Made by a program: the position numbers and the translations under genes | The notes under the pieces: model-generated | Told to the model about the DNA's origin: nothing | The model's database searches: none | What the model saw: only the letters and a program-made list of their open reading frames with translations | DNA from: an uncultured Clostridium sp. | GTDB lineage: Bacteria; Bacillota; Clostridia; TANB77; CAG-508 | Assembly (NCBI GenBank): GCA_964608075.1 | Contig: CAZSMG010000002.1 | Coordinates: 5,154-69,153, forward strand | Length of the DNA: 64,000 bases | Direction: 5' to 3' | Shown here: positions 44,482 to 63,044 of the stretch, piece by piece | How positions within the stretch are numbered: position 1 is the first letter of the stretch | How the letters are laid out: each line of letters begins with the position of its first letter

Positions 44482-44525
44482 CTCCTTTCAGCATACCTAT
44501 GGCAAGGATTTTAAGTAATATTAAA

Positions 44526-46195: not shown

Positions 46196-46300
46196 CAAAA
46201 TATGTTGTTAACTGATATCGAAAATCAACAAAGATTATTGACTAATCAAAAATTAACAATTAAAATACAAATTATAAAATTGTTAACAACATTATACACA
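46196..46300. promoter_or_regulatory. Divergent promoter/operator region with three TTGTTAAC-type palindromic motifs
   Basis: ttgttaac at 46205-46212, ttaacaa at 46253-46259, and the perfect 10-bp palindrome ttgttaacaa at 46280-46289. They lie between the divergently transcribed 403-aa ORF and the xis-like gene. Confidence 0.45.
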
Positions 46301-46356
46301 GCTAATTTTAAATTGTCAATACAAAATTTAAAATTTAGCGATTTAAAAGATGGGAG

Positions 46357-46572
46357 GTGATTAATATGGCAATAGAGAGAATGCAAAGGACAACTTTAAC
46401 AGCTAAAGAAGCAGCAGAATATTTAGGAATATCTTATTGGTTAATTACACAATTAGTTAAAAGAAAACAAATTCCGTGTTCTAGAGTTGGAAAAAGAATT
46501 TTATTTAGAAAAGAAGCATTAGATATTTATCTAAGCAAAAAAGAAAATGATTCTGTAGAAGAATCTTGTTAG
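46357..46572 (+). CDS. xis: Excisionase/Xis-like helix-turn-helix DNA-binding protein
   Basis: HTH_17-type motif LTAKEAAEYLGISYWLITQLVKRKQIPCSRVGKRILF. 71 aa. Confidence 0.7.
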   Translation: MINMAIERMQRTTLTAKEAAEYLGISYWLITQLVKRKQIPCSRVGKRILFRKEALDIYLSKKENDSVEESC

Positions 46573-46586
46573 AAAGAAGGGAGGAA

Positions 46587-47054
46587 ATGGGACAAGTTGG
46601 ATGGATAAAAGTAAATACAAATATATTTTCAAATAGAAAAATTAAAATCCTGCTAAAAGAAAGGGAAGGGGACACTTATTTTAGAATATGGATTCAAATT
46701 TTAACTATTGCTGGAGAATGTAACAGAGATGGTGGTTTATATATTAGTGATAATACACCATTTAAAATCAGAGATTTTACAAATATTATTGGAAAATCTT
46801 CGAAAACATTTACGAAAATCTTACAAAAATTTATTGATTTAGGAATGCTAATTTATAAAAATGATACATACTTCGTAAAGAACTGGAGCAAGTATCAAAG
46901 TGCCGATAAACTTAAGAAAATTGGAAAATCAAATAAAGTGATTGAAGAAAATTTAATTGAAAAAAGTTTTAATAATACAGAAGAAAAGATAAGAAAAGAA
47001 GAAAATAGAAAGGAGACCAGAGTAGATGAATCAAATTTTGAAACCCTCGATTAA
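46587..47054 (+). CDS. Phage replisome-organiser / DnaD-like N-terminal domain protein
   Basis: The winged-helix-like N-terminal region resembles phage replisome organisers. The start is set at the internal ATG (MGQVGW), which has an AGAAGGGAGG RBS. The track ORF uses a TTG at 46566 that overlaps the xis stop. Confidence 0.55.
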   Translation: MGQVGWIKVNTNIFSNRKIKILLKEREGDTYFRIWIQILTIAGECNRDGGLYISDNTPFKIRDFTNIIGKSSKTFTKILQKFIDLGMLIYKNDTYFVKNWSKYQSADKLKKIGKSNKVIEENLIEKSFNNTEEKIRKEENRKETRVDESNFETLD

Positions 47055-47895
47055 TAAAGATGATTTTATTGAGTGTGAATACTGCCAAAATAAATTATAT
47101 AGAAAAACAATTGAGTGGGAATTATATGGGACAAAAAGAACAATAGAATTAGATTATGAAAGATGTAATTGTAATGATGCACAAGCATACTGGAATGAAT
47201 ATGATTTAAATAAAATAAGGACGCTAGAGGAAGAAAAAAAACTAGAATTAATGCAAGAATTTTCAAAAAGAGTTGAGAGAATTATAAAAAATAGCAAGAT
47301 GAGTAAAAGAAATTTAAGTTATAAATTTAATAATTTTGAGCCAAATAATAGTAATAGAAAAATATTTAATAATTTGAAAAACTATAGTGAAAAATTAGTA
47401 AATGGTATAGAGAAAAAGGGATTAATTTTGGTAGGAAATAATGGAATTGGTAAGACACATTTAGCTTGTAGTATTGCAAATAAATTAATTGAAAATGGAA
47501 CACCAGTAATATATGGTACATTAATTAATTTATTAGCAGAATTAAGAAATTCATATGATACAGATAATAATATTTCAGAGATGGAAATTATCAAATTGTA
47601 TGAAAATGTTGACTTATTAATCATAGATGATTTAGGAAAAGAAAAACCAAGTGAATGGGGATTAGAAAAGTTATTTACTATTGTAAATAGTAGATATGAA
47701 AATAATTTACCAGTAATTATAACAACAAATTATAATCAAAATTCTTTAATGGAGAGACTAAGTTTAAATGGAGAAATTGAGACAGCAAAGTCAATTATTT
47801 CAAGATTATATGAGATGTGTTATCTTGTAAAAATAGATGATATAGATCATAGAATTCAAAAGAAAAAAGTTAGTAATTGCGACAACAATGACTAA
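47026..47895 (+). CDS. DnaC/IstB-like AAA+ helicase-loader ATPase with an N-terminal Cys-rich zinc-finger-like segment
   Basis: Walker A GNNGIGKTH, Walker B LLIIDDLGKE, and CEYCQN...CNCND upstream. It overlaps the preceding gene. Confidence 0.8.
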   Translation: MNQILKPSINKDDFIECEYCQNKLYRKTIEWELYGTKRTIELDYERCNCNDAQAYWNEYDLNKIRTLEEEKKLELMQEFSKRVERIIKNSKMSKRNLSYKFNNFEPNNSNRKIFNNLKNYSEKLVNGIEKKGLILVGNNGIGKTHLACSIANKLIENGTPVIYGTLINLLAELRNSYDTDNNISEMEIIKLYENVDLLIIDDLGKEKPSEWGLEKLFTIVNSRYENNLPVIITTNYNQNSLMERLSLNGEIETAKSIISRLYEMCYLVKIDDIDHRIQKKKVSNCDNND

Positions 47896-47979
47896 CTAAA
47901 AAGATTACTTTTTTAAATGTTTTCTATAAAAATTATAAATTATTTTTTCAAAAAAGTAAATAAAAATTGATAAAAAATT

Positions 47980-48220
47980 AGGACAAGCAAGTAGCAAAAT
48001 ATTTACACACTTGTCCTAATTTTTAAAAGAAAATGAATAAAAGATGAACAAAAAAGATCCCTCGGAGAGCCAAAAGGGTATTAGGGCATTTTGCCCTAAA
48101 CAGCAAAAAGGGTGTCAAGACACCATGCTGGCGAATAAAGGGCACTTAAAAATCCACTTTATTCGGAGCAAATAAATTTGCTCAAATTTTCTGAAATTCG
48201 CTTTCGCTATTTCAGAAAAT
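47980..48220. promoter_or_regulatory. Cluster of five consecutive inverted repeats (candidate oriT / single-strand origin / operator array)
   Basis: aggacaag...cttgtcct (47980-48017), tagggcattttgcccta (48082-48098), ggtgtcaagacacc (48111-48124), gagcaaataaatttgctc (48166-48183), ttctgaaattcgctttcgctatttcagaa (48189-48217). Local G+C is elevated. Confidence 0.45.
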
Positions 48221-48245
48221 ATAAGATCAGAAATGGAGAAAAAAT

Positions 48246-48866
48246 ATGAGAGTAATTATGGATGAATTTGATCATGTCTTTTTACCTTATTGGAAAATAC
48301 TAGACAAATTAAAAATATTAAATATAAAAACTAAAAATGGAAAAGAGATAAGTCATAAAGATTTGCGAAAGGCAATATCTGTTATGATAAAAAAACATCC
48401 TACATGTAGATGGAGAAGTGAAAAAATTAGAAGTAAAAGATATTACATTTTGTTTGAAGGATATCTATGGTTAATATACGTATATTTTCAATCAGAAAAG
48501 AAACAAATAGATGCTGATGTAGATTTTTTCAAACTGAGAATAGGAGTATATGAAGAATTTTTAAAAGTAAATCCTGAATCATTATGGAATGAAGATATAA
48601 GTTTTTCGGATTTAGAAAATTATTTTCACAGAAAGAAAGATACAATACATAGAGCAATGGTGAAAATGGCTAAAGAAAATTTTGGAAATACTTTTACTTA
48701 TTATGATAATGATAAATTACTTGTTTCAAAAGAAGGCATTGAATGGCTATGTAAAAATTGTTTCAAGCAAAAGTATTTGGAATTATTAGAAGAATACAAA
48801 ATGGAATTAACAGAAAAATACATTGAAGCAGGATATGTTTATGATGAATTTTTTGGAATGAATTAA
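48246..48866 (+). CDS. Hypothetical protein (206 aa)
   Basis: ORF immediately downstream of the hairpin cluster. No recognisable motif. Confidence 0.5.
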   Translation: MRVIMDEFDHVFLPYWKILDKLKILNIKTKNGKEISHKDLRKAISVMIKKHPTCRWRSEKIRSKRYYILFEGYLWLIYVYFQSEKKQIDADVDFFKLRIGVYEEFLKVNPESLWNEDISFSDLENYFHRKKDTIHRAMVKMAKENFGNTFTYYDNDKLLVSKEGIEWLCKNCFKQKYLELLEEYKMELTEKYIEAGYVYDEFFGMN

Positions 48867-48880
48867 AGGAGGTATCGATT

Positions 48881-49282
48881 ATGAAACATTATTTAAATCC
48901 AGATCAAAGAAGAAAAAGTATAAAAGTATGGGTTTCTGATGAAGAAAGAGCTTTAGTTGAAGCTAAAGCATACAATTATGGCTATAGAAGGATTGCACCA
49001 TATATTAGAGATGCAGCAATTTATGAAAGAGTAACTAATGTAGAAGTAAAAGGAGAAAAAGAAATTCTTAATGCATATGCTGAGAATACTAGAGAAGTTA
49101 AAAGTATCGTTAAAGATATAAGACATATTTGTAAATTTGCTACACAAATTTCTGAAAGAGATAGACAGGAACTTTTACATCTAATGAAAGCCATATATAA
49201 AAAGCAAAATAAAATGCTAGATCTTATTGATAAAAAACTTGATTTAGAGGTATGGCAAGAAGTTAATCGTAATAAAAATTAA
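48881..49282 (+). CDS. MobC-like ribbon-helix-helix mobilisation/relaxosome accessory protein (tentative)
   Basis: N-terminal RKSIKVWVSDEERALVEAKAYNYGYRRIAPYIRDAAI pattern typical of MobC/RHH proteins. AGGAGG RBS. Confidence 0.5.
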   Translation: MKHYLNPDQRRKSIKVWVSDEERALVEAKAYNYGYRRIAPYIRDAAIYERVTNVEVKGEKEILNAYAENTREVKSIVKDIRHICKFATQISERDRQELLHLMKAIYKKQNKMLDLIDKKLDLEVWQEVNRNKN

Positions 49283-49354
49283 AAATAAATAATGTGTAAT
49301 TTATTGAGAAAAAAAGATTATTATGATAGAATAACAAAAGTTAAGAGGTGAAAT

Positions 49355-50356
49355 ATGATAGAATTAGGAGAGATATATAATCAAAAGTTGAAAAATAAAA
49401 AATTTATAGATTTATTTTGTGGACTTGGTGGATTTAGATTGGCCTTAGAATCTTATGGCGCAAAATGTGTATTTAGTTCAGACATAGACAAACATGTAAG
49501 TAAGACATATGAAAATAATTTCGGAGATTATCCATTAAGTGACATAACAAAAGTTGATGAGAAAGATATTCCTAAACATGATATTTTATGTGCGGGTTTT
49601 CCATGTCAAGCATTTAGTATATCTGGAAAGCAAAAAGGATTCGAAGATACCAGAGGGACTCTATTTAGAGAAGTTGTGAGAATTGCTAGTTATCATCAAC
49701 CAGAATTATTATTATTAGAAAATGTAAAGAATTTAGAAAAACATGATAGTGGAAGAACTTTTAAAGTAATAAAGGAAAATATAGAAAACATCGGATATAA
49801 TATGTATTCAAAGGTTATAAATGCTTCTAGATATGGTATTCCTCAATCAAGAGAAAGAATTTACATGGTATGCATTAGAAAAGACTTAGATAATAATAAT
49901 TATAAGTTCCCTCTGCCTGTAAATAAAGAAAGATGTGTTAATGACATACTACTTAATAACGGGGAAGAAAAACAATATATCATTAACAAACCATATAAAT
50001 TAAAAGAGAGAAATCAGCAAATAAAAATGTTTAAAGTTTATGACAAGCCAGTAAGAATTGGAACTGTAAATAAAGGTGGACAAGGCGATAGAATATATGA
50101 TCCAATGGGACAAGCAATAACATTGTCGGCAGAAGGTGGAGGAACTGGTTCTAAAACGGGATTATATTACATAAATAACGAGGTTAGAAAACTACATCCT
50201 AGGGAATGTGCAAGATTGATGGGATATCCAGAAAATTATATTATTGATGAATCAGTTAATCAAGCACAAAAACAATTCGGCAACAGTGTAGTTGTAGATG
50301 TTTTGCAATATGTAATAAAAAGTATCATAGATGAGGGGAGTATAAAAAATGGATAG
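49355..50356 (+). CDS. DNA (cytosine-5)-methyltransferase, M.HhaI-like
   Basis: Motif I FCGLGGF, motif IV GFPCQAFS, motif VI LLENV, and the C-terminal RKLHPRECARLMGYP...QFGNSVV. Extensive collinearity with M.HhaI as recalled from memory, including the TRD segment GKGGQG-RIY...ITLSA-GGG. Confidence 0.9.
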   Translation: MIELGEIYNQKLKNKKFIDLFCGLGGFRLALESYGAKCVFSSDIDKHVSKTYENNFGDYPLSDITKVDEKDIPKHDILCAGFPCQAFSISGKQKGFEDTRGTLFREVVRIASYHQPELLLLENVKNLEKHDSGRTFKVIKENIENIGYNMYSKVINASRYGIPQSRERIYMVCIRKDLDNNNYKFPLPVNKERCVNDILLNNGEEKQYIINKPYKLKERNQQIKMFKVYDKPVRIGTVNKGGQGDRIYDPMGQAITLSAEGGGTGSKTGLYYINNEVRKLHPRECARLMGYPENYIIDESVNQAQKQFGNSVVVDVLQYVIKSIIDEGSIKNG

Positions 50357-51092
50357 TTCAGGGGGTTCAAAAATAGCAAAAGATGGATTTGAAAATGAAA
50401 AGGATATTGCTAATAAATTTATTAATTGGAAAGATGATATAGAAGCACAACAATGGTTAAAAACCATGGGATATAATCTAAATGATATTGAATATGTTTA
50501 TGCAGAAGTTTTACATGGATATAAAACGGATGTACAAGTTCAAGTAACAATAAAACTCAAAAATATTATTGATGCACAAAATTTACAAGTAAAGTTAGTA
50601 AGTAATGCAAAAGGATTCAATCAAATAGATAAAAGATGGATAAAAAATTATGCTGAAATGTGGGAAATGCCTGATAATATAGTTAGATTGCTAAAATATT
50701 ATACGGGAGAGTTTGAACCATATAAGAAAGATACAAGAGATAAAAGAAGAATGTTTATGGATGAATTTTCAGAACAAGAACAAAATGAAATATTAGAATA
50801 CTTTGAACAAAATAAAATGCTTATTATCTTAGACATTGTAAAAGGAAGGGGAAAATTTGCAGCCGAATGGATTTTAGTTGCACAAAAGTATGAAGATATA
50901 TTTAGATGGATATTGAAGCCTATAAATGTTGCTATTAATCATTATAGTGAAGGAAAAGTAGAAATAACTAATAGAGGAAACTTGAAAATTGGAAGAATTG
51001 GAATGCAGAGGAAGGGTGGAGATGCGGGAAGAGAAACCGCAAATATGTTACAGTTTAAAGTAGATCCAATTGAATTGTTTAATTTAAATTAA
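50349..51092 (+). CDS. Putative cognate Type II restriction endonuclease (247 aa)
   Basis: Its start overlaps the methyltransferase stop by 8 nt (translational coupling). The size is typical of small Type IIP enzymes. A terminator hairpin follows at 51108-51145. Confidence 0.5.
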   Translation: MDSSGGSKIAKDGFENEKDIANKFINWKDDIEAQQWLKTMGYNLNDIEYVYAEVLHGYKTDVQVQVTIKLKNIIDAQNLQVKLVSNAKGFNQIDKRWIKNYAEMWEMPDNIVRLLKYYTGEFEPYKKDTRDKRRMFMDEFSEQEQNEILEYFEQNKMLIILDIVKGRGKFAAEWILVAQKYEDIFRWILKPINVAINHYSEGKVEITNRGNLKIGRIGMQRKGGDAGRETANMLQFKVDPIELFNLN

Positions 51093-51164
51093 TATAATTT
51101 TAGTACAAAAGAAAAGTAGAATGAGAAGAAATCATTCTACTTTTCTGGTCTAAAGGGGAGAAAA

Positions 51165-54100
51165 ATGGAAGAGAACACAAATTATGAAGTATTAATTCCT
51201 AATAATATGATTGAAAATAAGGCAGAAGACGCATTAGAATTTGCATTAAAAAATGAGAAGATAAGAAATGTTGCGATAACTGGGCAATATTCTTCAGGAA
51301 AATCAAGTATGATACAATCATATTTTGGTAAATATTGTAAAGAAAAGGAATATTTAAATATATCATTAGCGACATTTGAGAAAAAAGAAAATGCAAATGA
51401 ACCTATTGAAGAATCTAATTCATTGGAAAGAGTTATAATAGAAAAGTTATATTATTCTTTTTTAAAAAAATATGATAAACAAGAAAATATAAAAGAATCT
51501 ATACTAACAGGTATTCTTGTTGCATTTATTAATATAGGAATATACTTATTTAATATTGAAGCAATAAGAAATAGTTTAAATGATAACTTTTGGACAACTC
51601 TAATATTTATTTTCTTAGAAATAATATGTTTAACAAGCATAATAGGATGTTCTATATCATTTGTAATGAATTTTCAGAAGATTAAATTGAAACTAGGAGA
51701 TGTTGAAGTAGAAGTAAATCATAATAGTAAAGAAACTAGCCGTAATTTATTAAATGAGGAAATAGATTTTATTGTAAAAATTATGAGTATTGCTAAATAT
51801 AAGTATATTGTATTTGAAGATTTAGATAGATTTCAAAATCCAAAGATATTTGAAAGATTGAGGGATTTAAATATTACATTAAATTCGACATTAAAGAATA
51901 AAGTGAAATTTATATATGCGATAAAAGATGAAATGTTTATTGCAGACAATAGAACTAAATTTTTTGATTTTATTATACCTGTTGTGCCATATGTGTCTTA
52001 TGAAAATTCAGGAGAAGAATTGTTAAAAATAATAAGAAAGCATGGATTGGAGAATGAACTGTCCGAAGATTTTATTTTAGATATTGCACTATATATACCT
52101 GATATGAGAATATTAAAAAACACAATAAACGAATACATTATTTATAAGAAAACTCTTGATAAGAAGCCACCAAATTATGAGAAATTATTTTCTATTTTAT
52201 TATATAAAAATACTTGTTCACAGGATTTTGCCAAACTACAAAATAAAGACGGTGAAGTATATAAATGTTTTTCTAAAAAAAGCGAAGTAATCGAGAAATA
52301 TATTGAAGAAAAACAAGAAGAAATTGAAGACAAAAAGAAAGAACATAAAGAACTAGAAAAGAATTTAATATCCAAAAACAGTATTAAAGAACTTGCAGTA
52401 TATTATATGAAAAGTATATCTAAAGATTATCAAGTGACATTAAAAAGCATAGAGGGAAAAGAAGTAAGAATACAATTAGGTATGAATGTAGAGAATATTT
52501 CAGATAACATTTTATTTTCAGACAATACAACAATAGAATATGTATATAATGGAAGTTGGAAAACAGAAAATTTATCTAATTTTTTCAAAGAAAAGTGCCC
52601 AGGATTTTTTGAACAATATGAGATTTTTAGAGAAGGTGTAGATGATATAAAAGAAAAAATTAGCATGGAAATAGGAAAGATAAACGAAGAGATTGATAAG
52701 ATAAGAGAATGTACATTAAGTGAACTATTGCAAGAGAATGGAAAAATTGTAACAGTAAGTTTAGGGAAATATAGTGATTTAATTAAATATTTGCTAAATA
52801 ATGGCTATATTGATGAAAATTATAGTACATATATTAATAAATTTCACGAAGGAAGTATTACAGAGAATGATTATAATTTTATAATGAATGTAAGAAATGG
52901 AAAACAAAATAATTATAAAGATAAATTAGACAATACTATAAAAATAATAAAAAGACTAAAAAATGCAGAATTCAAAAAAGAAGAAATATTGAATATAGAT
53001 ATATTAGATGTTCTGATTGAAAATGATCTATATGTTGAGAAAAAGAATATATTTTTTTCAACACTAATAAAATCAAATAGATATGTAGAATTTATTAAAT
53101 ATTGTATATGTGAATCAGAAACATTTAAAAACAAAAATAAAATGATTACAAATTTATGCAAATTAGATAAGGACATATTGAACAAAGTGCAAGATTCTAA
53201 AATTGAAAATAGATATAAAAATTTCATTCTGGAAGATATTATAATAAAAATAGAAATAGATAATTTAAAAGAACTAAATAATATAGATGAGATACTTAAA
53301 TATAGTGAAGAAAACAACCTACTAAAAAAGGCAAAAATAGTTGATATAAAAGATAAAATTGACCAATTTGATATAAAGTATAATAATATTTCTGAATTTA
53401 AAGATAATATTGATTTATATAAATACATTGTAGAGAATAATAAATATAAGATTAATTATGAAAATATATTAGAAATACTTATGAACGAAAGTAAGAGTAA
53501 TAAAGATGAAATAGAAGAAGAGAACTACTATAGTATATCTAAAAATAAACAGTTAAAAAAATATATAGATGAAGATATAGAATTTTATATTGGTAATGTA
53601 TATAGTAAATTACCTAAAAAACAAAAGAATCCTATAGGGATAGTAGTAGATCTACTAAATAATTCTAATATGAATGCTGAAAGTAAACGAAAAATTATAA
53701 TAAAAGAAATTAACAAAATTGAAGACATATCAGAAATACAAGACAGTGGCTTATGGAAAGTTATATTTGACAATAATTTAGTAAAATTAGGATGGAAAAA
53801 TATAAACAATTATTATGAGAAATTAGGATTAGATGAAACATTAATAAATATATTTAATGACAAAGAAAAAAGAAAGTTATTATTACAAGATAATATAAAA
53901 ATTGAAGATAATAGTAATTCAGAATTTATAAGAGATTTATTGTTATCTAATAATTTAAATGAAGAGGCACATAGTTTAATATTAAAAAATAGTGAATACA
54001 AATTAAGTAATGTTGAAATAAGCGAATTAAAAGAAGAGAAACTTCTGAAATTAGTAAATAATAAAAGAATTGAATTTAGCAATGAGATGATAGAAAAGGT

Positions 54101-54635
54101 GAGGGCTTATTCAGTAAAAATGCTAATAGCATTTATAAAGAATAATTATAATAATTTTTATAAAGAAATTGATAATGATAGTATTGTATTTAATTTGGAA
54201 GAAATAAATGGAATTCTTGAATCAGATGTTACACCAAATATGAAAAATAAGTGTATTAATATGATTCGAAATGATGAAATAGAAAGTCTACCAATAGTTT
54301 TATTAGAGAATATTTCATTAGTATCTATAAATAATAACTTAAAAGATAATATAAGTGAAGAAATTCTATTAAAGATTATTATGAATATACAAAATATAGA
54401 ATCAAAGATAAAATTGATAAACTTAAATTTTAGTAAAGTAAGTAGAGATAATATAGATATATTACTAAAAAGTTTAGGTGAGGATTATTATAAAATAATT
54501 GTTAACAGAACAAGGCCAAGTTTAAAACATAATGAATCTAATATATTACTATTAGAAAATATCAAAAGTTTAGGATATAAAATTAAACATGAAACTAATG
54601 GGCAAACTATAAAATTAAAAAATACAATTAGATAA
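51165..54635 (+). CDS. KAP-family P-loop NTPase (1156 aa) with TM helices inserted in the NTPase domain and a long K/E/N-rich helical C-terminal region
   Basis: Walker A ITGQYSSGKSS, Walker B KYIVFEDLDRF. Two to four hydrophobic helices (ILTGILVAFINIGIYLF, TTLIFIFLEIICLTSIIGCSISFV) lie between them. This is the KAP hallmark. Confidence 0.8.
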   Translation: MEENTNYEVLIPNNMIENKAEDALEFALKNEKIRNVAITGQYSSGKSSMIQSYFGKYCKEKEYLNISLATFEKKENANEPIEESNSLERVIIEKLYYSFLKKYDKQENIKESILTGILVAFINIGIYLFNIEAIRNSLNDNFWTTLIFIFLEIICLTSIIGCSISFVMNFQKIKLKLGDVEVEVNHNSKETSRNLLNEEIDFIVKIMSIAKYKYIVFEDLDRFQNPKIFERLRDLNITLNSTLKNKVKFIYAIKDEMFIADNRTKFFDFIIPVVPYVSYENSGEELLKIIRKHGLENELSEDFILDIALYIPDMRILKNTINEYIIYKKTLDKKPPNYEKLFSILLYKNTCSQDFAKLQNKDGEVYKCFSKKSEVIEKYIEEKQEEIEDKKKEHKELEKNLISKNSIKELAVYYMKSISKDYQVTLKSIEGKEVRIQLGMNVENISDNILFSDNTTIEYVYNGSWKTENLSNFFKEKCPGFFEQYEIFREGVDDIKEKISMEIGKINEEIDKIRECTLSELLQENGKIVTVSLGKYSDLIKYLLNNGYIDENYSTYINKFHEGSITENDYNFIMNVRNGKQNNYKDKLDNTIKIIKRLKNAEFKKEEILNIDILDVLIENDLYVEKKNIFFSTLIKSNRYVEFIKYCICESETFKNKNKMITNLCKLDKDILNKVQDSKIENRYKNFILEDIIIKIEIDNLKELNNIDEILKYSEENNLLKKAKIVDIKDKIDQFDIKYNNISEFKDNIDLYKYIVENNKYKINYENILEILMNESKSNKDEIEEENYYSISKNKQLKKYIDEDIEFYIGNVYSKLPKKQKNPIGIVVDLLNNSNMNAESKRKIIIKEINKIEDISEIQDSGLWKVIFDNNLVKLGWKNINNYYEKLGLDETLINIFNDKEKRKLLLQDNIKIEDNSNSEFIRDLLLSNNLNEEAHSLILKNSEYKLSNVEISELKEEKLLKLVNNKRIEFSNEMIEKVRAYSVKMLIAFIKNNYNNFYKEIDNDSIVFNLEEINGILESDVTPNMKNKCINMIRNDEIESLPIVLLENISLVSINNNLKDNISEEILLKIIMNIQNIESKIKLINLNFSKVSRDNIDILLKSLGEDYYKIIVNRTRPSLKHNESNILLLENIKSLGYKIKHETNGQTIKLKNTIR

Positions 54636-54750
54636 TAATTATTGTATAAAATTTCAATATATAAGATATTAACTTAAATTCATTTCGTTGTCAAAAGGTG
54701 TTATTTATGATAGAATGCTATCAAATAATTATATTTTTAGGAGACCAATT

Positions 54751-54936
54751 ATGAAAATTAAGTGTTTAATTTGTGGAAACATAATAGAATCAAAAAGTGT
54801 ACATGATTTAGCATCTTGCAAATGTGAATCGTGTTATATTGATGGTGGAAGTTATTATGCACATATAGGTGCAAGAGACTTTAATAAAATTGTTAAAATT
54901 TTGGATGATGGAATAGAAGTTAAATGTTGCAATTAA
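54751..54936 (+). CDS. Small zinc-ribbon protein (about 61 aa)
   Basis: CLICGN...CKCESC...CC pattern. AGGAG RBS 7 nt upstream of the MKIKCLICG start. The track ORF starts at 54688. A terminator-like hairpin (gcaaaata...tattttgc plus T-run) follows. Confidence 0.5.
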   Translation: MKIKCLICGNIIESKSVHDLASCKCESCYIDGGSYYAHIGARDFNKIVKILDDGIEVKCCN

Positions 54937-55091
54937 TATATGAATAACAAAAGAAAGGCAAAATAGTAATGTGATTAATTTTACAAGATTATTTTGCTTT
55001 TTTTGATAATTAATTACAAGTTTCGACAAATTATTTAATTAAAAAGTAATATAATATTAAAGTAATAATATATGTAAAAGGAGTCAAGTAA

Positions 55092-57440
55092 ATGAATATT
55101 GTAGAAAATGGAGTAAAAGTAGATTTTCACATACATTCTATTGCATCTAAACATAAAGAAGAGTCAGGAAAAGTTGAAAATTCGACAATTGATAAATTGG
55201 ATATATTAATAAAAAATCTAAATGATAGACAAATCAATATGTGTTCAATTTCTGATCATGATAATTTTGATATAAATATTTATAAAGCTTTAAAGAAACA
55301 AGAAAACAAAGGATCTATAAAGAAAGTTTTACCAGCAGTAGAATTTTCAGTAAAGTATGATTCAAAAGTAATACATATTATTACAATTTTTGAAGATAAT
55401 GATGACAATAAATTGGAGAATATTAACAAACTTATATTTGATAATAAGAAAAATATTCCATTATATGACCAAGAAATGTCATTTTCAGAAGAAAAATTTT
55501 TAGAGATATTAAAGAAAATAGATTTAAATGTTGTTATGATTGCACATCAAAAAGAAAGTTTAACAAGTAATAAAATAAGAAACAATGATGTTATGTCTTT
55601 AGGAAAAGAAAAATTTAATGAATTAGTATTTATAGATTATTTTGAATCTTTTGAATTCAAAAACAAAAGAAATGAAATATTTAATAAATATTATATAGAA
55701 AATAATCAAGAAAATTTAAATAGTGAAGATTTAAGATTTATTACTGGAAGTGATTGTCATAAATGGAGTGAGTATCCATTAGAAGATGAAAAATTCTCTT
55801 TTACTTATTTAAAATGTTTGCCAACATTTAGAGGATTGGCAATGGCAATTACAAATACTAAAAGAATAAAATTAGTAAATAGCTTTTTTTCAAATAGTGA
55901 TAATAAAGTTGATAGTATAAAGATTTCGATTAATGGTAAGGAAAAAAATATTCCTTTATCAAGAGGAATAAATGCGATCATAGGAGATAATTCAATAGGA
56001 AAATCATTATTACTTCATAAAATAACTAATTATGAATACTTAAAAGATTCAAAAATAGAAAAGAAGTATGAAGAGTATTTAAACAAAAATAATATTCAAC
56101 TTGAAACATCTATTTCACAAGATAAAATATATAGAGTTGATAAACAGGGTGCAGTAAGGGAAATGTTTGAAAAAAAGACTTTTAATGTAAATGGATTTTT
56201 AAATGAATATTTTCCTCCTGTACCAAATGTTGAAAAATATAAAACTAAGGTAAAGGATGAAATACATAGATATATACAAGATATAAAGGATAATTATGAT
56301 TATAGAGAAAATAAAAAGAAAATATCTAGTTTTTATATAAAATATTTTGAAGAAAATGCAAAATCATTAAATCTTCAAAAAACTAGAAAGAATTTTAAAG
56401 CTAAAATCCAAAAACTAAATAATATTATAGCTGAGTTTGAAGATATTAATTTGAAGCTAGATAAACTAATTAAAAATAAAGATGTTTTTGAAGATGATGT
56501 TAAATTATTGGAAGAACAGAAGAATATTTATTATAAATTGATAGATAAATATAATCAAGAAATTGAAAGGTGGAAATTTGAAAATAGTAAGATTAAGATT
56601 GTAAATGATTGCTTAGGAAAATTGGCACAGAAGTTACAGAAATCTAAAACTGATAATACAAAGGCAATAGAAAATTACGAAAACACATTAGAGACATTCG
56701 AAGATAATATCGTAAATTTATATTTGCAATCAAAAAAAGAAAGAATCTATTCTGCGAATATAAAGAAGGAAATAATTCCTATAGAATATAATAATGTTGG
56801 TACATATAGATTTATTAATAAATGTGATGTTGAAGAAGTATCAAATGAGTATATTATAAAAAGTATTCAAAAGGTATTAGGCAAAAAAATTAAAGATATA
56901 AATACTTTAACAGAAGATAATATTTCAGAGAAGCTAGAAGGAGAAGACTTTTACGAAAAATTAGATAATTTAGAGAAAGAAATATACAAAAAGATTGAAT
57001 CAGACTTTAAATACAAGCCAATAATAAATAACTTAGAGGATAAAGATATTACTAAAGAATTGTCAGCTGGATTTAATTCAAAGATATATTTTGATATATT
57101 ATCCGAACAAAGTCAAAAAGATGGTATATATATAATAGATCAACCAGAAGATGATGTATCACAAAAGTCAATTAAAGAGTATTTGTTAGAAGATTTTTAT
57201 AATATGAGTCAAAATAGACAAATTATCTTAGTAACGCATAACCCTCAATTTATTGTAAATTTAGATGTTGATAATGTCATTTATCTAGGAAAGAATGAGG
57301 ATAATGAAATTATAGTACAAAGTGGAGCATTGGAGTATTTTAATGAAGAATATGATATGTTAAAAATTGTGGCAGATAATATAGATGGAGGAATTAGTTC
57401 TATTAATGAAAGGTGGAAAAGATATGAAAAAAATATATAA
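55092..57440 (+). CDS. PHP-domain phosphoesterase fused to an ABC-type (OLD/Rad50-like) ATPase with a coiled-coil insert
   Basis: N-terminal PHP motifs DFHIHSIAS and SISDHDN. Walker A GDNSIGKS. A long coiled-coil segment of about 300 aa. Signature-like LSAGFN, Walker B IYIIDQPEDD, H-loop ILVTHNPQF. Confidence 0.8.
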   Translation: MNIVENGVKVDFHIHSIASKHKEESGKVENSTIDKLDILIKNLNDRQINMCSISDHDNFDINIYKALKKQENKGSIKKVLPAVEFSVKYDSKVIHIITIFEDNDDNKLENINKLIFDNKKNIPLYDQEMSFSEEKFLEILKKIDLNVVMIAHQKESLTSNKIRNNDVMSLGKEKFNELVFIDYFESFEFKNKRNEIFNKYYIENNQENLNSEDLRFITGSDCHKWSEYPLEDEKFSFTYLKCLPTFRGLAMAITNTKRIKLVNSFFSNSDNKVDSIKISINGKEKNIPLSRGINAIIGDNSIGKSLLLHKITNYEYLKDSKIEKKYEEYLNKNNIQLETSISQDKIYRVDKQGAVREMFEKKTFNVNGFLNEYFPPVPNVEKYKTKVKDEIHRYIQDIKDNYDYRENKKKISSFYIKYFEENAKSLNLQKTRKNFKAKIQKLNNIIAEFEDINLKLDKLIKNKDVFEDDVKLLEEQKNIYYKLIDKYNQEIERWKFENSKIKIVNDCLGKLAQKLQKSKTDNTKAIENYENTLETFEDNIVNLYLQSKKERIYSANIKKEIIPIEYNNVGTYRFINKCDVEEVSNEYIIKSIQKVLGKKIKDINTLTEDNISEKLEGEDFYEKLDNLEKEIYKKIESDFKYKPIINNLEDKDITKELSAGFNSKIYFDILSEQSQKDGIYIIDQPEDDVSQKSIKEYLLEDFYNMSQNRQIILVTHNPQFIVNLDVDNVIYLGKNEDNEIIVQSGALEYFNEEYDMLKIVADNIDGGISSINERWKRYEKNI

Positions 57441-57699
57441 TTTTGAAGAAAATGAGGAAGCATATGCAATTTTTTTTGAAGAAACAGAAGTATATACAAT
57501 TAATAAGGATAATTTAAAGGTAGATGGAACTAGATTTTATGAAACTTTTTTTAGCGAATACTCTATTGGCGATACCATAGAATTAAATAAAGGCAATAGT
57601 GTTGATAATAGCAATAAACTATCAATTGCTATTTATGATACTATAAACAAATTGATAAATGAGATAATTAAAAAAATAGATGAAGAAAAAGAGGAGTAA
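57424..57699 (+). CDS. Small acidic protein (91 aa) translationally coupled to the PHP-ATPase gene
   Basis: ATG at 57424 overlaps the last 17 nt of the upstream gene in another frame. A terminator follows directly. Confidence 0.5.
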   Translation: MKKIYNFEENEEAYAIFFEETEVYTINKDNLKVDGTRFYETFFSEYSIGDTIELNKGNSVDNSNKLSIAIYDTINKLINEIIKKIDEEKEE

Positions 57700-57727
57700 G
57701 AAGGCGAAACAATCGCCTTCTTTGAGA
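57700..57727 (+). terminator. Rho-independent terminator
   Basis: Hairpin gaaggcg-aaacaa-tcgccttc followed by TTTG. Confidence 0.7.
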
Positions 57728-57732
57728 GTATA

Positions 57733-59197
57733 GAAAAAGTTGTGTAAATAAATCCTTCCGTGATAAAATATAAAATATCAAGGAGGGATTTTTTCTATGG
57801 GTAAAAAAGTAGAAAAAGAAAAAAATGAATTAGTAGAGGAGTTTTTTAGAAGAAATGATCCAAAAAATATTAAATCTATGAATGATATGTATGCAGCATG
57901 GAAAGATTTCTTTGCTCCTGCTTTCCAACAATTGCTAGATGCAGAAATGGAGGCTAAAATTGGTTATTCTAAAAATGAAAGAACAGATAATAACAATTAT
58001 CGAAATGGATATTATCCAGAAAGAACTGTAGCAACAGAAATGGGAGATATTCCAGTAAAAGTACCTAGAGATAGAAATGGAGAAATTGACTCTAATTTAG
58101 TTCCTAAATATTCACGAACAGCAAATGGATTTGATGAAAAGGTAATATCTATGTATGCTTTAGGAATGTCTGATAAAGATATTCAAGAACAAATAAAGGA
58201 AATATTTGGTTGTAATCTTTCACCAGACATGATAAGTGATATAACAGATAAGATTATACCAGAAATACAAGAATGGCAAAAAAGGAAACTAGAAAGTGTT
58301 TATCCAATAGTATTCATAGATGCAACACATTTCCATGTCCGCGATAACGGACAAATAGTAAAGAAAGCTGCATATGTAGTGTTAGGAATTGATAAAGATG
58401 GAATGAAGAAAGTATTAACAATAACAATAGGAGAAAATGAAAGTGCAAAATATTGGATGACAGTATTAAATGAACTCAAAAATCGAGGAGTACAAGATAT
58501 TCTAGTATTATGTGCAGATGGACTAACAGGACTAAAAGATGCAATATCAGCTATTTATCCTAAAACAGAATATCAAAGATGTATAGTACATCAAATAAGA
58601 AACTCATTAAAGTATGTTCCATACACAGATAGAAAAGAATTAGCTAATGACTTAAAAACAGTTTACAAGGCAAGTACAGAAGAAATCGGCTATACAAATT
58701 TATTAGAATTAGAAGAAAAATGGAAAAATAAATATCCTGGTGCAATTCAAAGTTGGATAGATAATTGGGATGTACTTTCCGTATTTTTCAAATTCTCAGC
58801 AGAAATACGAAAAATAATGTATACAACAAATGCAATAGAAAGCTTAAATAGTACATATAAAAGGATTAACAGAAATAGAAATGTATTTCCAACAGATATG
58901 TCTTTACTAAAAGTTCTTTATCTTTCAACATTGAAAGCAGAGAAAAAATGGTCAAGAATGGTTGATAAATGGGACTTATGTTTGTCCCAATTTAGAATTA
59001 TGTATGAAGGTAGAATATAGTTAAAAGCCTAAAATAATAGGCTTAAGAAGAAATTTTCTTAAGTCCTATTAATTTTACACAACTTTTTCTAAAAAATTGA
59101 TTTTTTAGAAAAATATTATTAAAATAAACATAGTTATAAAAATATTAATTTTTTCAAGTTATCAATCGGAAGGAAATCCGATTTACACAACTTTTAC
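57733..59197 (+). mobile_element. IS256-family insertion sequence, with a second nested copy of the right inverted repeat
   Basis: Left IR gaaaaagttgtgtaaataaatccttcc (57733-57759). Right IR-like ...tcctattaattttacacaactttttc (about 59063-59090). A second IR copy ggaaggaaatccgatttacacaacttttac (59168-59197). A mutator-type transposase gene lies between them. Confidence 0.8.
57797..59020 (+). CDS. IS256-family (mutator-type) transposase
   Basis: 407 aa. Conserved DDE region (VFIDATHFHVRDNG...LVLCADGLTGL...YQRCIVHQIRN). Confidence 0.9.
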   Translation: MGKKVEKEKNELVEEFFRRNDPKNIKSMNDMYAAWKDFFAPAFQQLLDAEMEAKIGYSKNERTDNNNYRNGYYPERTVATEMGDIPVKVPRDRNGEIDSNLVPKYSRTANGFDEKVISMYALGMSDKDIQEQIKEIFGCNLSPDMISDITDKIIPEIQEWQKRKLESVYPIVFIDATHFHVRDNGQIVKKAAYVVLGIDKDGMKKVLTITIGENESAKYWMTVLNELKNRGVQDILVLCADGLTGLKDAISAIYPKTEYQRCIVHQIRNSLKYVPYTDRKELANDLKTVYKASTEEIGYTNLLELEEKWKNKYPGAIQSWIDNWDVLSVFFKFSAEIRKIMYTTNAIESLNSTYKRINRNRNVFPTDMSLLKVLYLSTLKAEKKWSRMVDKWDLCLSQFRIMYEGRI

Positions 59198-59271
59198 GAT
59201 ATTCTCCTTCCTTTCTCCTTTTTGACATTTTAAAGTGCAATTTTATATTTTTAAAGTGCAAATTTTGCACT

Positions 59272-59577
59272 TTAAAATGAAACATTATTATTACAACATC
59301 CCATAATCAACTGCACCCCATCTACAAAACCATTCCTATAATACTTCTCATTCCAATAATCAATATAATTCATAAAATTCTCATCAAGAAAACCAAGCTG
59401 TTTTTGAACATATTTCCTATCTTTTTTAGGAACACGTTTTAAAATCCTTTCAGAAATCTCATCAAAATAAATATGATGTTTTCTATCCTCATCACAAGTC
59501 AAAGAACATAAATCCTCCTCTCTAAAATTTAACCAATCTTTTAAAATATCATTATTAACCTCTCTAAAATTATTCAT
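59272..59577 (-). CDS. Hypothetical protein (about 101 aa)
   Basis: GGAGG RBS with an 8-nt spacer to the MNNFREV start. The track ORF begins at 59607. Confidence 0.45.
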   Translation of the reverse strand: MNNFREVNNDILKDWLNFREEDLCSLTCDEDRKHHIYFDEISERILKRVPKKDRKYVQKQLGFLDENFMNYIDYWNEKYYRNGFVDGVQLIMGCCNNNVSF

Positions 59578-59695
59578 TGTTAAAACCTCCATTTTTATAA
59601 ATTTCAAAATTTAACACATCAAAACACAATAAAACTTGCAAATACAAATTCAAAAATCCATTGAAATTTCATGTATTTGATGCCTCAAAAAACTG

Positions 59696-59713
59696 GGGAC
59701 AAATTGGGGACAA
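59696..59713 (+). repeat. Arm-type repeat GGGGACAAATTGGGGACA, right copy
   Basis: Matches 43172-43189. Confidence 0.6.
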
Positions 59714-59830
59714 TGCTAGCAAAAATAGACCTATTTTAACCTAATTCATAATCACACCAATTTGCTATAACCCTATTAAAACCAATAAAAACTCAAGTTA
59801 ACAAAATTTCTCAAAAACACTTATTAAATT

Positions 59831-59845
59831 CTCATAACCCGAAGG
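59831..59845 (+). other. Putative attR core: 15-nt exact copy of the tRNA-fMet anticodon stem-loop segment
   Basis: ctcataacccgaagg is identical to 43055-43069. The following sequence only weakly resembles the tRNA 3-prime half. Confidence 0.5.
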
Positions 59846-60101: not shown

Positions 60102-63032
60102 ATGAACGAAAAGGAATTAATATACGAAGGAATTGAAACTGCGTTTATTAACTATAATAATCAATCGAATGTAGCATATAAACCACAATTTATATCAAAT
60201 GATTATAAAGAAGGAAGAAAGGTAATATCAACTCTAGAAGACGAACTATTAAAATGTGATAAATTTGATATTAGTGTAGCATTTATAACAGATGGAGGAA
60301 TTGCACCATTATTACAAACATTAAAATTACTAGAAAGCAAAAATATTAAAGGAAGAATTCTAACAACTGATTATTTAGGTTTTAATGATCCTAAAGCATT
60401 AAAAAAATTAACTCAATTCAAAAATATAGAATTAAAAATGTATATGACAGAAAGTTCTGGAGAAGGATTCCATACGAAAGGATATATGTTTAAAAACAAA
60501 GATATATACAGAATAATTATTGGAAGCTCTAATATGACTCAAAAAGCATTATCTGTTAATAGAGAATGGAATACTAAAATTGTATCAACAGAACAAGGAG
60601 AGTATGCGAAAGAAATTCTTAGTGAATTTGAAGGATTATGGGAATCAAAGTATACCTTAGCGTATGAAGATTTTATTGAAAAATATGAATTAAAATATAA
60701 AATAATAAAAGAACAAAGAAGAATTGCGAGCTCTAAGGCAATACCAACTATTAAAGAATATAAATTACAGCCTAATGCTATGCAAGTAAGTTTTATAAAT
60801 AATTTAAATAAAATAGTGGAAATGGGAGAAAATAAAGCTTTATTAATTTCAGCTACTGGTACTGGAAAAACATATGCTTCAGCTTTTGCGTTAAGAGATG
60901 CAAAACCAAGAAGAGCACTATTTTTAGTACATAGAGAGCAAATTGCAAAACAAGCGATTGAAAGTTACAAGAAAATATTTGGAAAAACAAAAACTTTTGG
61001 ATTGCTTTCTGGAAATTCTAAAGATTTTAAAACAGATTATTTATTTTCTACAATGCAAATGATGAGTAAAGAGGAGATATATACTAAATTTAAAAAGGAT
61101 GAATTTGATATAATTGTTATAGATGAAGCACATCGAGTAGGCGCTAGTAGTTATCAAAAACTTATACAATATTTTAAGCCAAAGTTATTATTAGGAATGA
61201 CTGCATCACCTGAAAGGACGGATGGATATGATGTGTATAAAGAATTTAACTATAATATAGCATATGAAATTAGATTGGAACAAGCATTAGAAGAAAATTT
61301 TCTATGCCCTTTTCATTACTTTGGAATAACTGACCTAGAATTTGAAGGGGAAACGATAAATGAAGAAACAAAATTAAGGGACTTCGCAAAATTAACAAGT
61401 GATGAAAGAGTTAAATATATAATAGAGCAAATAGAATTTTATGGACATTCTGGTACAAACATAAATGGACTCGTTTTCTGTAGCTCTAAAAAAGAAGCTC
61501 AGATACTAAGTAATAAATTTAATGAAAAAGGATATTTCACAGTAGCACTTACTGGAGAAGATTCACAAGAAAAGAGAGAAGAAGCAATTAATAGATTAAC
61601 TTCTAAAAATATTGAAGAAAAGATAGATTATATTTTTACAGTAGATATTTTTAACGAGGGTGTTGATATACCAGAAATTAATCAAATAATAATGTTAAGG
61701 CCAACAGAATCTCCAATTGTATTTGTACAACAATTAGGAAGAGGGTTAAGAAAAGCATCAGACAAAGAATATGTAGTTATACTTGATTTTATAGGAAATT
61801 ATAAAAATAACTTTATGATTCCAATAGCATTATCAGGAGACCGCAGTTATAATAAAGATAATATACGTAGGTATGTGTTAGAAGGAGATAGAGTTATTCC
61901 AGGATCTTCAACGATTCATTTTGATGAAATATCTAAAAAAAGAATATTTGAAGCGATTGATAGCGCTGATTTTACTGATATAAAATTAATTAAAGAAAAT
62001 TATACTAATTTAAAAAATAAATTAGGGCATATTCCGTCATTGTTAGATTTTGATAAATATGGTGAAATGGATGTATTAAAAATTTTTGATAATAAGAGTT
62101 TAGGCTCGTATTATAAGTTTTTAACAAAATATGAAAAAGATTATAAAGTTAGATTATTAGAGAATGAAGAAAAAGTTATTGAATTTATATCTAAAAAGTT
62201 AGCAAGTGGAAAAAGAATACATGAATTAGAATTATTAAAAATTATGATTACAGAAGATGTTCAATTATTTACAAAACTTAGGGATAAACTTTCAAAGATA
62301 TATAATATAAATATTACAGAACAAGAAGAAAGAAGCGTTATAAATATATTGACTAATAATTTTGCTTCGGGTTCAAGTAAAAATACATATAAAGAATGTG
62401 TTTTTATTGAAGAAAAAAATAATAATGATTATAGTAAAACAGAATCATTTAAAAATATGTTAAATAATCAAGAATTTAAGAAGATCTTTGAAGAACTAAT
62501 TGAATTTGGAATTAGTAGATATAATCAAAATTATAGTAAAAAATATCAAGATACTCAGTTAGTAATATATCAAAAATATACATATGAAGATGTATGTAGA
62601 CTATTAAATTGGAGAAATAACGAAGTTCCACTTAATATAGGTGGATATAAATTTGATAAAGATACAAAAACATTTCCTGTTTTTATTAACTATGATAAAA
62701 ATGATGAAATTAATGATAGTATAAAATACGAAGATCACTTTGAAAGTAGTAATAAATTAATAGCTATCTCCAAAAGTGGAAGAAATATAAATTCAGAAGA
62801 TGTACAAAATCTTATTAATGCAAAAGATAGGGGAATAAAAGTTGAATTATTTGTTAGGAAAAATAAAGATGATAAAATCTCAAAAGAATTTTACTATTTA
62901 GGTAGAATGAATGCTACAGGAAAAGTTAGAGAATTTATTATGCCTAATACAAATAAAACAGCAGTAGAGATAGAGTGGATATTAGAAGCGCCTGTAAGAG
63001 AAGATATATATGAATATATAATAGATTGTTAA
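60102..63032 (+). CDS. SauUSI-like Type IV (modification-dependent) restriction enzyme: PLD-family nuclease, SF2 helicase/ATPase and a C-terminal specificity domain
   Basis: N-terminal HKD motif (HTKGYMFKNKD...GSSNMT). Helicase motifs I (ISATGTGKT), II (VIDEAHRV) and III (TASPER). A C-terminal domain of about 250 aa. 976 aa. Confidence 0.75.
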   Translation: MNEKELIYEGIETAFINYNNQSNVAYKPQFISNDYKEGRKVISTLEDELLKCDKFDISVAFITDGGIAPLLQTLKLLESKNIKGRILTTDYLGFNDPKALKKLTQFKNIELKMYMTESSGEGFHTKGYMFKNKDIYRIIIGSSNMTQKALSVNREWNTKIVSTEQGEYAKEILSEFEGLWESKYTLAYEDFIEKYELKYKIIKEQRRIASSKAIPTIKEYKLQPNAMQVSFINNLNKIVEMGENKALLISATGTGKTYASAFALRDAKPRRALFLVHREQIAKQAIESYKKIFGKTKTFGLLSGNSKDFKTDYLFSTMQMMSKEEIYTKFKKDEFDIIVIDEAHRVGASSYQKLIQYFKPKLLLGMTASPERTDGYDVYKEFNYNIAYEIRLEQALEENFLCPFHYFGITDLEFEGETINEETKLRDFAKLTSDERVKYIIEQIEFYGHSGTNINGLVFCSSKKEAQILSNKFNEKGYFTVALTGEDSQEKREEAINRLTSKNIEEKIDYIFTVDIFNEGVDIPEINQIIMLRPTESPIVFVQQLGRGLRKASDKEYVVILDFIGNYKNNFMIPIALSGDRSYNKDNIRRYVLEGDRVIPGSSTIHFDEISKKRIFEAIDSADFTDIKLIKENYTNLKNKLGHIPSLLDFDKYGEMDVLKIFDNKSLGSYYKFLTKYEKDYKVRLLENEEKVIEFISKKLASGKRIHELELLKIMITEDVQLFTKLRDKLSKIYNINITEQEERSVINILTNNFASGSSKNTYKECVFIEEKNNNDYSKTESFKNMLNNQEFKKIFEELIEFGISRYNQNYSKKYQDTQLVIYQKYTYEDVCRLLNWRNNEVPLNIGGYKFDKDTKTFPVFINYDKNDEINDSIKYEDHFESSNKLIAISKSGRNINSEDVQNLINAKDRGIKVELFVRKNKDDKISKEFYYLGRMNATGKVREFIMPNTNKTAVEIEWILEAPVREDIYEYIIDC

Positions 63033-63044
63033 TGGAGGAGTAAA

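Follow-up and report, generated by a model that had tools for sequence, protein, structure and literature searches.

Tmn, a single-gene anti-phage membrane ATPase, was reportedly first described by Gao et al. in 2020. In Escherichia coli it is described as a membrane decamer whose solenoid arms sense a phage protein, after which ATP turnover, Mg2+ export and plasmolysis follow (PMC13001434). The same source, a mechanistic preprint by Wu et al. from 2026, reports that Tmn works as a single gene, that no conserved operon architecture surrounds it and that it acts in synergy with other defences, and it includes mutagenesis of residues essential in the E. coli protein and a phylogeny with ten Tmn clades (PMC13001434). 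Here, a large NTPase gene and its small downstream neighbour were analysed in a stretch of 64,000 nucleotides from an uncultured Clostridium sp. (GenBank assembly GCA_964608075.1, contig CAZSMG010000002.1, positions 5,154 to 69,153 of the forward strand), referred to below as the window and numbered from its first letter. An original prediction had described the two genes as a poorly characterised KAP NTPase with a zinc-ribbon partner, possibly a distinct two-gene system within a defence island. It is concluded, with a probability of roughly 0.8, that the large gene is a clostridial member of Tmn carried as mobile-element cargo, and that the small gene, a member of the Pfam family DUF7695, is separate from it. 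As Tmn is known and has been the subject of a mechanistic study, the description as poorly characterised is outdated.

The large NTPase gene

The open reading frame (ORF) proposed for the NTPase was confirmed at 51165..54635 on the plus strand, where it begins with ATG and encodes 1156 amino acids (aa) in a window with a GC content of about 25%. Its product matched the Pfam family YobI-ATPase (PF20693) with E=3e-86 and 290.6 bits against a cut-off of 27, and the alignment of residues 21-366 with profile positions 2-363 of 363 spanned the whole domain; beyond PF20693, the Pfam search gave no other significant family. The PADLOC model for Tmn (PDLC02220) was matched with E=1e-55, residues 188-950 corresponding to profile positions 251-1061 of 1273, and the E. 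coli plasmid protein WP_096058004.1 (1273 aa, named 'anti-phage transmembrane ATPase' in RefSeq) was 27% identical over 706 aa by BLASTP (E=3e-55). An NCBIfam search with the Tmn and DUF7695 proteins matched no family. Of the assignment to the KAP NTPases, the membrane P-loop NTPase stood but the family did not: residues 1-400 gave no match to KAP_NTPase (PF07693) at E<=10, in a test where the HMMER filters drop most matches above about 0.1. A precomputed PF07693 match was present in one of the 120 listed homologues (P0104), and some papers call Tmn a KAP-family NTPase in a broad sense (PMC11846954).

More than 1000 homologues were found, most of them full length and mainly of 1150-1280 aa, covering 97-100% of the query. 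They span Bacillota, Bacteroidota, Campylobacterota and Spirochaetota, and those bearing a name are labelled 'YobI family P-loop NTPase'. A tblastn search of plasmids returned 628 records, mostly from Escherichia, Klebsiella and Salmonella and in some cases annotated as 'anti-phage transmembrane ATPase', while a nucleotide search of plasmids yielded as its sole near match an uninformative 176 bp at 75% in a Fusobacterium record. The cluster formed by the protein at 90% identity has five members and its relatives occur in unrelated mobile contexts, a pattern typical of defence cargo.

The predicted insertion of transmembrane (TM) helices between the Walker motifs was borne out. Walker A (residues 40-47, GQYSSGKS, located by regular expression on the translation) is encoded at 51282..51305 and Walker B (residues 217-222, FEDLDR) at 51813..51830, both on the plus strand. 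Residues G45, K46, S47, D219, D221, R222 and F223 were invariant in an alignment of 87 homologues, and the P-loop is therefore not degenerate. Membrane segments were called from hydropathy windows together with AlphaFold2 helices, which placed a TM hairpin within the NTPase domain at 51501..51656 on the plus strand. Its two 19-residue segments (TM1, residues 113-131; TM2, residues 146-164) have Kyte-Doolittle means of 2.12 and 2.49, and the long helices predicted across the region were H80-129, H131-140 and H142-175. Two hydrophobic segments between the Walker motifs were likewise seen in 19 of 20 diverse homologues.

The AlphaFold2 model, calculated as a single chain from an 87-sequence alignment (mean pLDDT 84.6), consists of a P-loop alpha/beta core, the helical hairpin H80-175, a coiled coil with an insert, and a solenoid. 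A predicted proximal arm (52254..52706, plus strand) is made up of the coiled coil H364-399 and H479-514 flanking an alpha/beta insert with strands at residues 424-469. It is followed by a predicted distal arm (52764..54500, plus strand), an alpha-solenoid of about 45 short helices (residues 534-1112) with pLDDT mostly >90. As modelled, both arms agree with the description of Tmn in PMC13001434, and by analogy with that work the distal arm is the presumed phage sensor. When the model was compared with the PDB by Foldseek, nothing was found at E<=1e-3, the weak matches being to karyopherin/ARM/HEAT solenoids and Avs/ORC/RFC-type ATPases. The C-terminal part had been predicted as an about 800-aa low-complexity helical tail; the last 790 residues are indeed helical, but they are not of low complexity, having pLDDT >90, invariant columns at D569 and N610 and near-invariant columns at G547, Y553, Y800, N832 and N898. 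Their richness in I, K, N and E is attributed to the genome GC content of about 25%. Ahead of the gene, a leader (51093..51164, plus strand) contains a hairpin with a 15-bp stem (51110-51146; -22.7 kcal/mol, z=-5.7), also a terminator-like site on the minus strand, and the ribosome-binding site AAGGGGAG.

Because the numbering of WP_096058004.1 fits the mutagenised protein in PMC13001434, the residues essential in E. coli Tmn could be mapped onto the clostridial protein. Conservation was found for G66/K67 (G45/K46 here), D276/R279 (D219/R222), N297 (N240), K325/F326 (K265/F266) and R374 (R315). In all, six of the seven NTPase-domain sites mutated in E. coli are conserved. At Y541/R544, where the alignment is weak, the clostridial protein has F474/K477, which is a conservative change. 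By analogy with the E. coli system, the clostridial protein would oligomerise in the membrane (as a decamer in E. coli), its solenoid arms would bind an early phage protein, binding would raise ATP turnover, and the complex would export Mg2+ or another ion. The cytoplasm would then collapse (plasmolysis) and phage development would stall, and the drop in ATP may also activate neighbouring ATP-sensing defences. The response of the E. coli type is marked by loss of Mg2+ and a collapse of ATP with no depolarisation of the membrane.

The DUF7695 gene

Both the 61-aa Cys-rich ORF and the terminator predicted to follow it were found. The zinc-ribbon-like ORF lies at 54751..54936 on the plus strand, encodes 61 aa with seven cysteines and has GGAG 8 nt 5' of its ATG; a longer ORF call, 54688-54936, begins at an upstream TTG. 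The product matched Pfam DUF7695 (PF24749) with E=1.5e-15 and 57.1 bits (cut-off 25). Its cysteines are arranged as CxxC...CxCxxC, and in a 21-sequence alignment C5, C8, C25 and C28 were invariant and C23 nearly so. The AlphaFold2 model was all-beta with a pLDDT of 70; a Foldseek comparison with the PDB gave no match at E<=1e-3, and the top matches, weak ones with E of about 4-5, were zinc-ribbon proteins (2jny, LysW). A literature search for DUF7695 found no paper.

The spacer between the two genes (54636..54750, plus strand, 115 bp) contains no terminator (fold z=-0.01). A promoter-like site does occur in it at 54688-54716, reading TTGTCA-17-TAGAAT and preceded by a TG. Since the scan gave 46 sigma-70-like sites in this AT-rich DNA against 43.6 expected by shuffle, which is not above expectation, the putative DUF7695 promoter is weak evidence. 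Downstream of the small gene, an intrinsic-terminator-like hairpin was located at 54951..55004 on the plus strand (-21.1 kcal/mol, z=-5.96). The hairpin, which is preceded by an A-tract and followed by a U-tract, had been missed by a simple terminator scan because of its long loop.

The proposed pairing was examined in both directions, with conserved co-occurrence set beforehand as its test. In the forward direction, a profile hidden Markov model (HMM) built from 120 DUF7695 homologues was run against 80 YobI-homologue loci from other genomes, each with up to 10 kb per side. It found a DUF7695 gene in none of the 80 loci and recovered the window's own copy only. Among the 75 of these loci with at least 400 bp downstream, none had a comparable double-CxxC small ORF. 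A CxxC scan of 1 kb around the 80 YobI genes returned one spurious ORF and an unrelated Cys-rich protein of 120 aa, the latter from two Lachnospiraceae metagenome-assembled genomes that are related to each other (L057 and L072), and the genes 3' of YobI varied in size and strand across the 80 loci. In the reverse direction, a YobI gene was found in none of 99 DUF7695 loci. Because no conserved co-occurrence of Tmn and DUF7695 was observed, the proposed pairing fails by that test.

The same outcome was seen within the closest relatives of the locus. In two sister contigs of metagenomic origin (L181 and L182), the same element holds a Tmn with 92% identity to that of the window. The DNA of L181 is 91.5% identical over window positions 48005-54736, a segment comprising a 206-aa gene, a NikA-like gene, the methyltransferase (M) and endonuclease (R) genes of a restriction-modification (R-M) system, and Tmn. 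Homology runs 100 bp past the Tmn stop codon and ends 15 bp before the ATG of DUF7695, with a recombination junction at 54736/54737. The next 4.3 kb of L181 contain MazG-like, ResIII/SLFN-helicase and other genes and lack DUF7695, before homology resumes at window positions 59212-59843. As judged by these comparisons, Tmn does not appear to need DUF7695 and has no conserved partner gene.

The small protein, for its part, belongs to a cluster of 506 members at 90% identity and is 80-91% identical across hundreds of contigs with unrelated upstream genes. Its distant homologues sit among phage-type genes (SSB, AAA_24, dUTPase, GmrSD, integrase), and DUF7695 is therefore regarded as a mobile-element or phage small protein. 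The DNA 3' of the gene is conserved together with it in many loci to about 55032-55079. These sequence relationships indicate that DUF7695 and its terminator make up an independent module, the adjacency of which to Tmn would have come from cassette exchange. A false lead is thereby removed: the NTPase is read as a described single-gene defence, and the zinc-ribbon gene as no partner of it.

The R-M cassette and the integrative element

The predicted neighbours, a HhaI-like R-M system and a PHP-ATPase module, were both recovered, the former as a C5 methyltransferase and an endonuclease of the R.HinP1I family on the upstream side, the latter as a PHP+ATPase protein of 782 aa on the downstream side. 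The C5 cytosine methyltransferase is encoded at 49355-50356 (plus strand; PF00145, E=1.7e-94; PADLOC MTase_II) and the endonuclease at 50349-51092 (plus strand; PF11463, E=2.1e-89; PADLOC REase_II). The R-M part of the predicted HhaI-like system thus stands, whereas GCGC specificity is inferred from the HinP1I family name. Together with Tmn, the two genes form a cassette at 49284..54638 (plus strand), in which DNA homology ends 3 bp past the Tmn stop codon. The cassette is contiguous at about 79% DNA identity with loci L002 and L004 and at 81% with L005 until the end of that contig; these three share about 99% identity among themselves and so are counted as a single independent observation. 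In L185 and L186, where Tmn is 66% identical, the order RepL-like gene, M, R.HinP1I, Tmn is the same as in L004, and in both L004 and L185 the backbone around the cassette differs from that of the window, encoding a RepL-like protein together with large serine recombinases. It was also observed that the cassette lies between two Endonuclease_NS_2 + DUF3006 pairs in L004 (4580-6279 and 16608-18048) and in L185, near the large serine recombinase genes. These flanking copies suggest a recombinase-borne element inserted into or beside the locus.

Loci L001 and L003, with Tmn 60-63% identical, share the Tmn module only, from 51097 and 51072 to 54651 and 54586, respectively. This homology includes the leader hairpin at 51110-51146, and the leader travels with the Tmn gene. 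In the remaining 75 YobI loci, a HinP1I-type R-M system was found in none. From the cassette linkage and the Tmn-only sharing of L001 and L003, Tmn is taken to be self-contained and, in this lineage, often hitch-hiking with HinP1I-type R-M. As a separate observation, window segments 48069-48212 (5' of the 206-aa gene) and 48863-49284 (the NikA-like gene) recur directly 3' of Tmn in L002 (13498-14100) and partly in L004, a hint that the side of the NikA-like gene on which the cassette was placed has varied from one element to another.

The region as a whole is an integrative element inserted at a tRNA-Met gene (43024-43099), next to which a tyrosine integrase is encoded on the minus strand (43294-44481). 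Next in order come genes for a GNAT protein, DUF6076, an Xis-like HTH_17 protein, a Phage_rep_org_N (replisome-organiser-like) protein and a DnaC-like protein. No attR copy of the tRNA-Met 3' end was found within the window, and the right end is therefore placed beyond 64000, giving a length of >21 kb. The element carries the R-M pair, Tmn, DUF7695, the PHP+ATPase gene, an IS256-family insertion sequence (IS), a type IV restriction enzyme and a PDC-S07 Nudix protein, and the predicted location among defence genes and membership of a defence family are both supported.

One gene order recurs among the loci of close DUF7695 relatives (62-91% identity): DUF6076 on the minus strand, the HTH_17/Xis-like, Phage_rep_org_N and IstB/DnaC-like genes, the 206-aa gene, a variable slot, DUF7695, a further variable slot and a small minus-strand gene. 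The left anchor of the variable R-M slot is the 206-aa gene (48246..48866, plus strand), whose product has 379 members in its 90%-identity cluster. Of the close DUF7695 loci, 23 have 9 kb or more of DNA ahead of DUF7695, and in 18 of these the gene was present there in the same orientation, at a spacing of 3.07-8.98 kb. The right anchor of the second slot appears to be a 111-aa ORF without a Pfam family (59272..59607, minus strand); conservation of its DNA extends to about 28 DUF7695 loci and to L181, the sister element. The slot 5' of DUF7695 held mostly type I or type II R-M systems. The slot 3' of it (L081-L142) held Avs2, AbiLi, AriA, CapP, pAgo, DRT2, AbiU, HamA, RnlA/RnlB and DUF8370/8371 with RloB, along with many proteins without matches. 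Whatever the cargo, 37 of 48 close loci had a gap of -4 to +44 bp from the upstream stop codon to the DUF7695 ATG.

The window DNA resembles the close DUF7695 loci only in discrete, sharp-edged blocks. These are 44500-44900 (the GNAT gene, in 5-7 loci only), 46300-46900 (the HTH_17 gene and the start of the replisome-organiser gene), 47500-48870 (the 206-aa gene preceded by the last part of the DnaC-like gene), 54747 to about 55032-55079 (the DUF7695 gene with its terminator) and 59270-59607 (the 111-aa minus-strand ORF). In most loci, the block with DUF7695 had its left edge at 54747-54750. A segment of about 130 bp (54947-55076), containing the terminator and the region 5' of the next gene, recurs alone 2.4-4.3 kb 3' of DUF7695 in L109, L117, L125, L128, L133 and L089-L091; as it recurs separately, extra cargo can enter between DUF7695 and this junction. 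A search of 43-64 kb for integron-like or repeated junction sequences gave only chance-level AT-rich repeats and the IS inverted repeats.

On this basis, it is tentatively proposed, as a possibility held with low confidence, that DUF7695 and its terminator are a portable junction module and that, in integrative elements of gut Clostridia, this module marks a defence hotspot with two sides. A role as a cargo-agnostic regulator or landing pad could follow, on account of the tight appending to any cargo and the razor-sharp edges, and a weaker variant would be a cooperating R-M and Tmn cassette. The element family is widespread and, as far as the searches made here show, undescribed. If the proposal is true, the DUF7695 module would be a practical bait for new defence systems. 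Between the three anchors (the 206-aa gene, DUF7695 and the 111-aa gene) lie the slot for R-M systems and the hypervariable one, and PARIS-like and Hachiman-like genes are among the contents of the latter; the slots offer a place to seek new defences of gut Clostridia, and the hotspot is the part most worth follow-up.

The remaining cargo lies 3' of the DUF7695 terminator. The PHP+ATPase protein of 782 aa, encoded at 55092-57440 on the plus strand, has its PHP domain in the N-terminal part and an AAA ATPase in the C-terminal part. It matched NCBIfam TrlF with E=1e-45, below the cut-off, its C-terminus matched the anti-phage protein Ppl with E=6e-11, and weak PADLOC matches were to PDC-M49A and PtuA. 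A homologue (E=2e-71) lies 2.4 kb 3' of DUF7695 in L133. Possibly this protein is an ATP-sensing system, one that might be primed by Tmn, and with its PtuA-like ATPase part it is, speculatively, a candidate for synergy with Tmn. Its gene is overlapped by a 104-aa ORF (57385-57699, plus strand). An IS256-family IS (57724-59206; Transposase_mut ORF 57797-59020, E=1.9e-110) sits inside the second cargo slot, bounded by 26-bp inverted repeats (57724-57749 and 59181-59206) that are 88% complementary. At 60102-63431, on the plus strand, the gene for a methyl-directed type IV restriction enzyme (PADLOC mREase_IV, E=8e-232) precedes a MutT/Nudix gene whose product matches the PADLOC candidate PDC-S07 (E=5e-51). 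Elsewhere in the window, a full-length OLE (ornate large extremophilic) RNA was detected on the minus strand at 41563-42158, with 366.6 bits against a gathering score of 50, which suggests a Bacillota host of an anaerobic or extremophile type. Within positions 1-2000 the GC content is extremely low, at 11.8% over the first 1 kb and 18% over the next, against about 25% in the rest of the window.

Alternative explanations and known systems

A dedicated two-gene defence, in which the small protein would act as a sensor, regulator or antitoxin-like partner of Tmn, can scarcely be sustained. The two genes do share a strand, are separated by 115 bp that contain no terminator and are followed by a strong one, but this arrangement is set against co-occurrence of 0/80 and 0/99, a 92% identical Tmn in L181 that does without DUF7695, homology that stops just short of its ATG, close DUF7695 copies behind unrelated genes on hundreds of contigs, and an E. 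coli Tmn that functions alone (PMC13001434). It is also very unlikely that the YobI-family protein is a housekeeping or element-maintenance membrane NTPase rather than a defence protein. The defence role of the window protein is drawn from its sequence and context, and Bacillus subtilis YobI is not known to have a published function; against this stand the PADLOC match to Tmn and a mobile-element neighbourhood of R-M, PHP-ATPase, type IV restriction and PDC-S07 genes.

Two further explanations concern cooperation rather than identity. That the HinP1I-type R-M system and Tmn form a cooperating three-gene unit, with Tmn acting for example as a second layer after restriction failure or responding to ATP or DNA-damage cues, is judged improbable. 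It would account for the contiguity of M, R and Tmn in L002/L004 (79%), part of L005 (81%) and L181 (91.5%), for the identical three-gene order inside a different mobile backbone in L185, and for the reported synergy of Tmn with other defences (PMC13001434). However, L001 and L003 share the Tmn module alone, the R-M system is missing from the 75 remaining YobI loci, R and Tmn have a strong hairpin between them, L002, L004 and L005 represent a single independent observation, and the linkage may be plain hitch-hiking in defence cargo. Rather unlikely as well, though somewhat less so, is a cargo-agnostic accessory role for DUF7695, as an operon-terminal zinc-ribbon regulator or a recombination landing pad serving any upstream cargo. 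The gene is tightly appended to diverse cargo in 37 of 48 loci, with edges at 54747-54750, a conserved terminator after it and variable defence genes on both sides, but L181 dispenses with it, its distant homologues lie among phage replication and nucleotide-metabolism genes and not among defence genes, and neither a known fold or function nor any literature was matched to it.

The assignment to Tmn as a single gene is itself opposed by several points. The protein is known here from sequence and models, at 27-30% identity to validated E. coli Tmn, and BLAST identity to the validated protein is confined to about the first 700 residues. Y262, essential in E. coli, is changed to K205. The map in the preprint has a resolution of 11.6 Å (PMC13001434), and in an envelope of the Gram-positive type both the trigger and the ion that is exported could be different. 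As no terminator separates the genes, DUF7695 may be co-transcribed with Tmn, and a strain-specific interaction is conceivable. Lastly, the DUF7695 HMM was built from close homologues (62-91% identity), so that very distant relatives could escape it, although the CxxC scan argues otherwise. With these reservations, identification as Tmn is retained, and it adds a divergent clostridial representative that is 27-30% identical to assayed E. coli proteins and keeps most of the essential residues. With such a protein it could be asked if cells with an envelope of the Gram-positive type also respond by Mg2+ export and plasmolysis.

Compared with described Tmn proteins (PF20693), the window protein has in common a full-length YobI domain with Walker A and B motifs and two TM helices inserted between them, the predicted coiled-coil proximal and alpha-solenoid distal arms, and a single-gene organisation on mobile DNA among defence genes. 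It differs in its 27-30% identity to the assayed E. coli proteins, in its length (1156 versus about 1270 aa), in the replacement of Y262 by K205, in its Bacillota-type host of about 25% GC and in its HinP1I-type R-M companion. With the KAP NTPases (PF07693; Kidins220/ARMS, PifA) it shares a membrane P-loop NTPase, TM segments tied to the NTPase domain and a role in conflict or defence. Unlike them, it gives no PF07693 match at E<=10 and has two TM helices inside the P-loop domain, whereas KAP is treated as a separate family with four TM helices (PMC13001434). The Avs/STAND proteins likewise combine an NTPase core with a repeat or solenoid sensor for a phage protein, and Foldseek matches of the Tmn model to Avs3 and Avs4 were not significant (E of 3.5e-3 or higher); the window Tmn differs from them in belonging to another NTPase family, in having no separate effector domain and in being membrane-embedded. 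At the level of the whole element, the closest comparison is with hotspots in phage satellites and integrative elements, such as the P2/P4 defence hotspots (Rousset et al. 2022, as cited in PMC13552941). In both, conserved flanking genes bracket changing slots whose content is nearly all defence genes, and the window element differs from the P2/P4 hotspots in its tyrosine integrase at tRNA-Met, its Xis-like HTH_17, Phage_rep_org_N and DnaC-like genes, and its gut Clostridia hosts.

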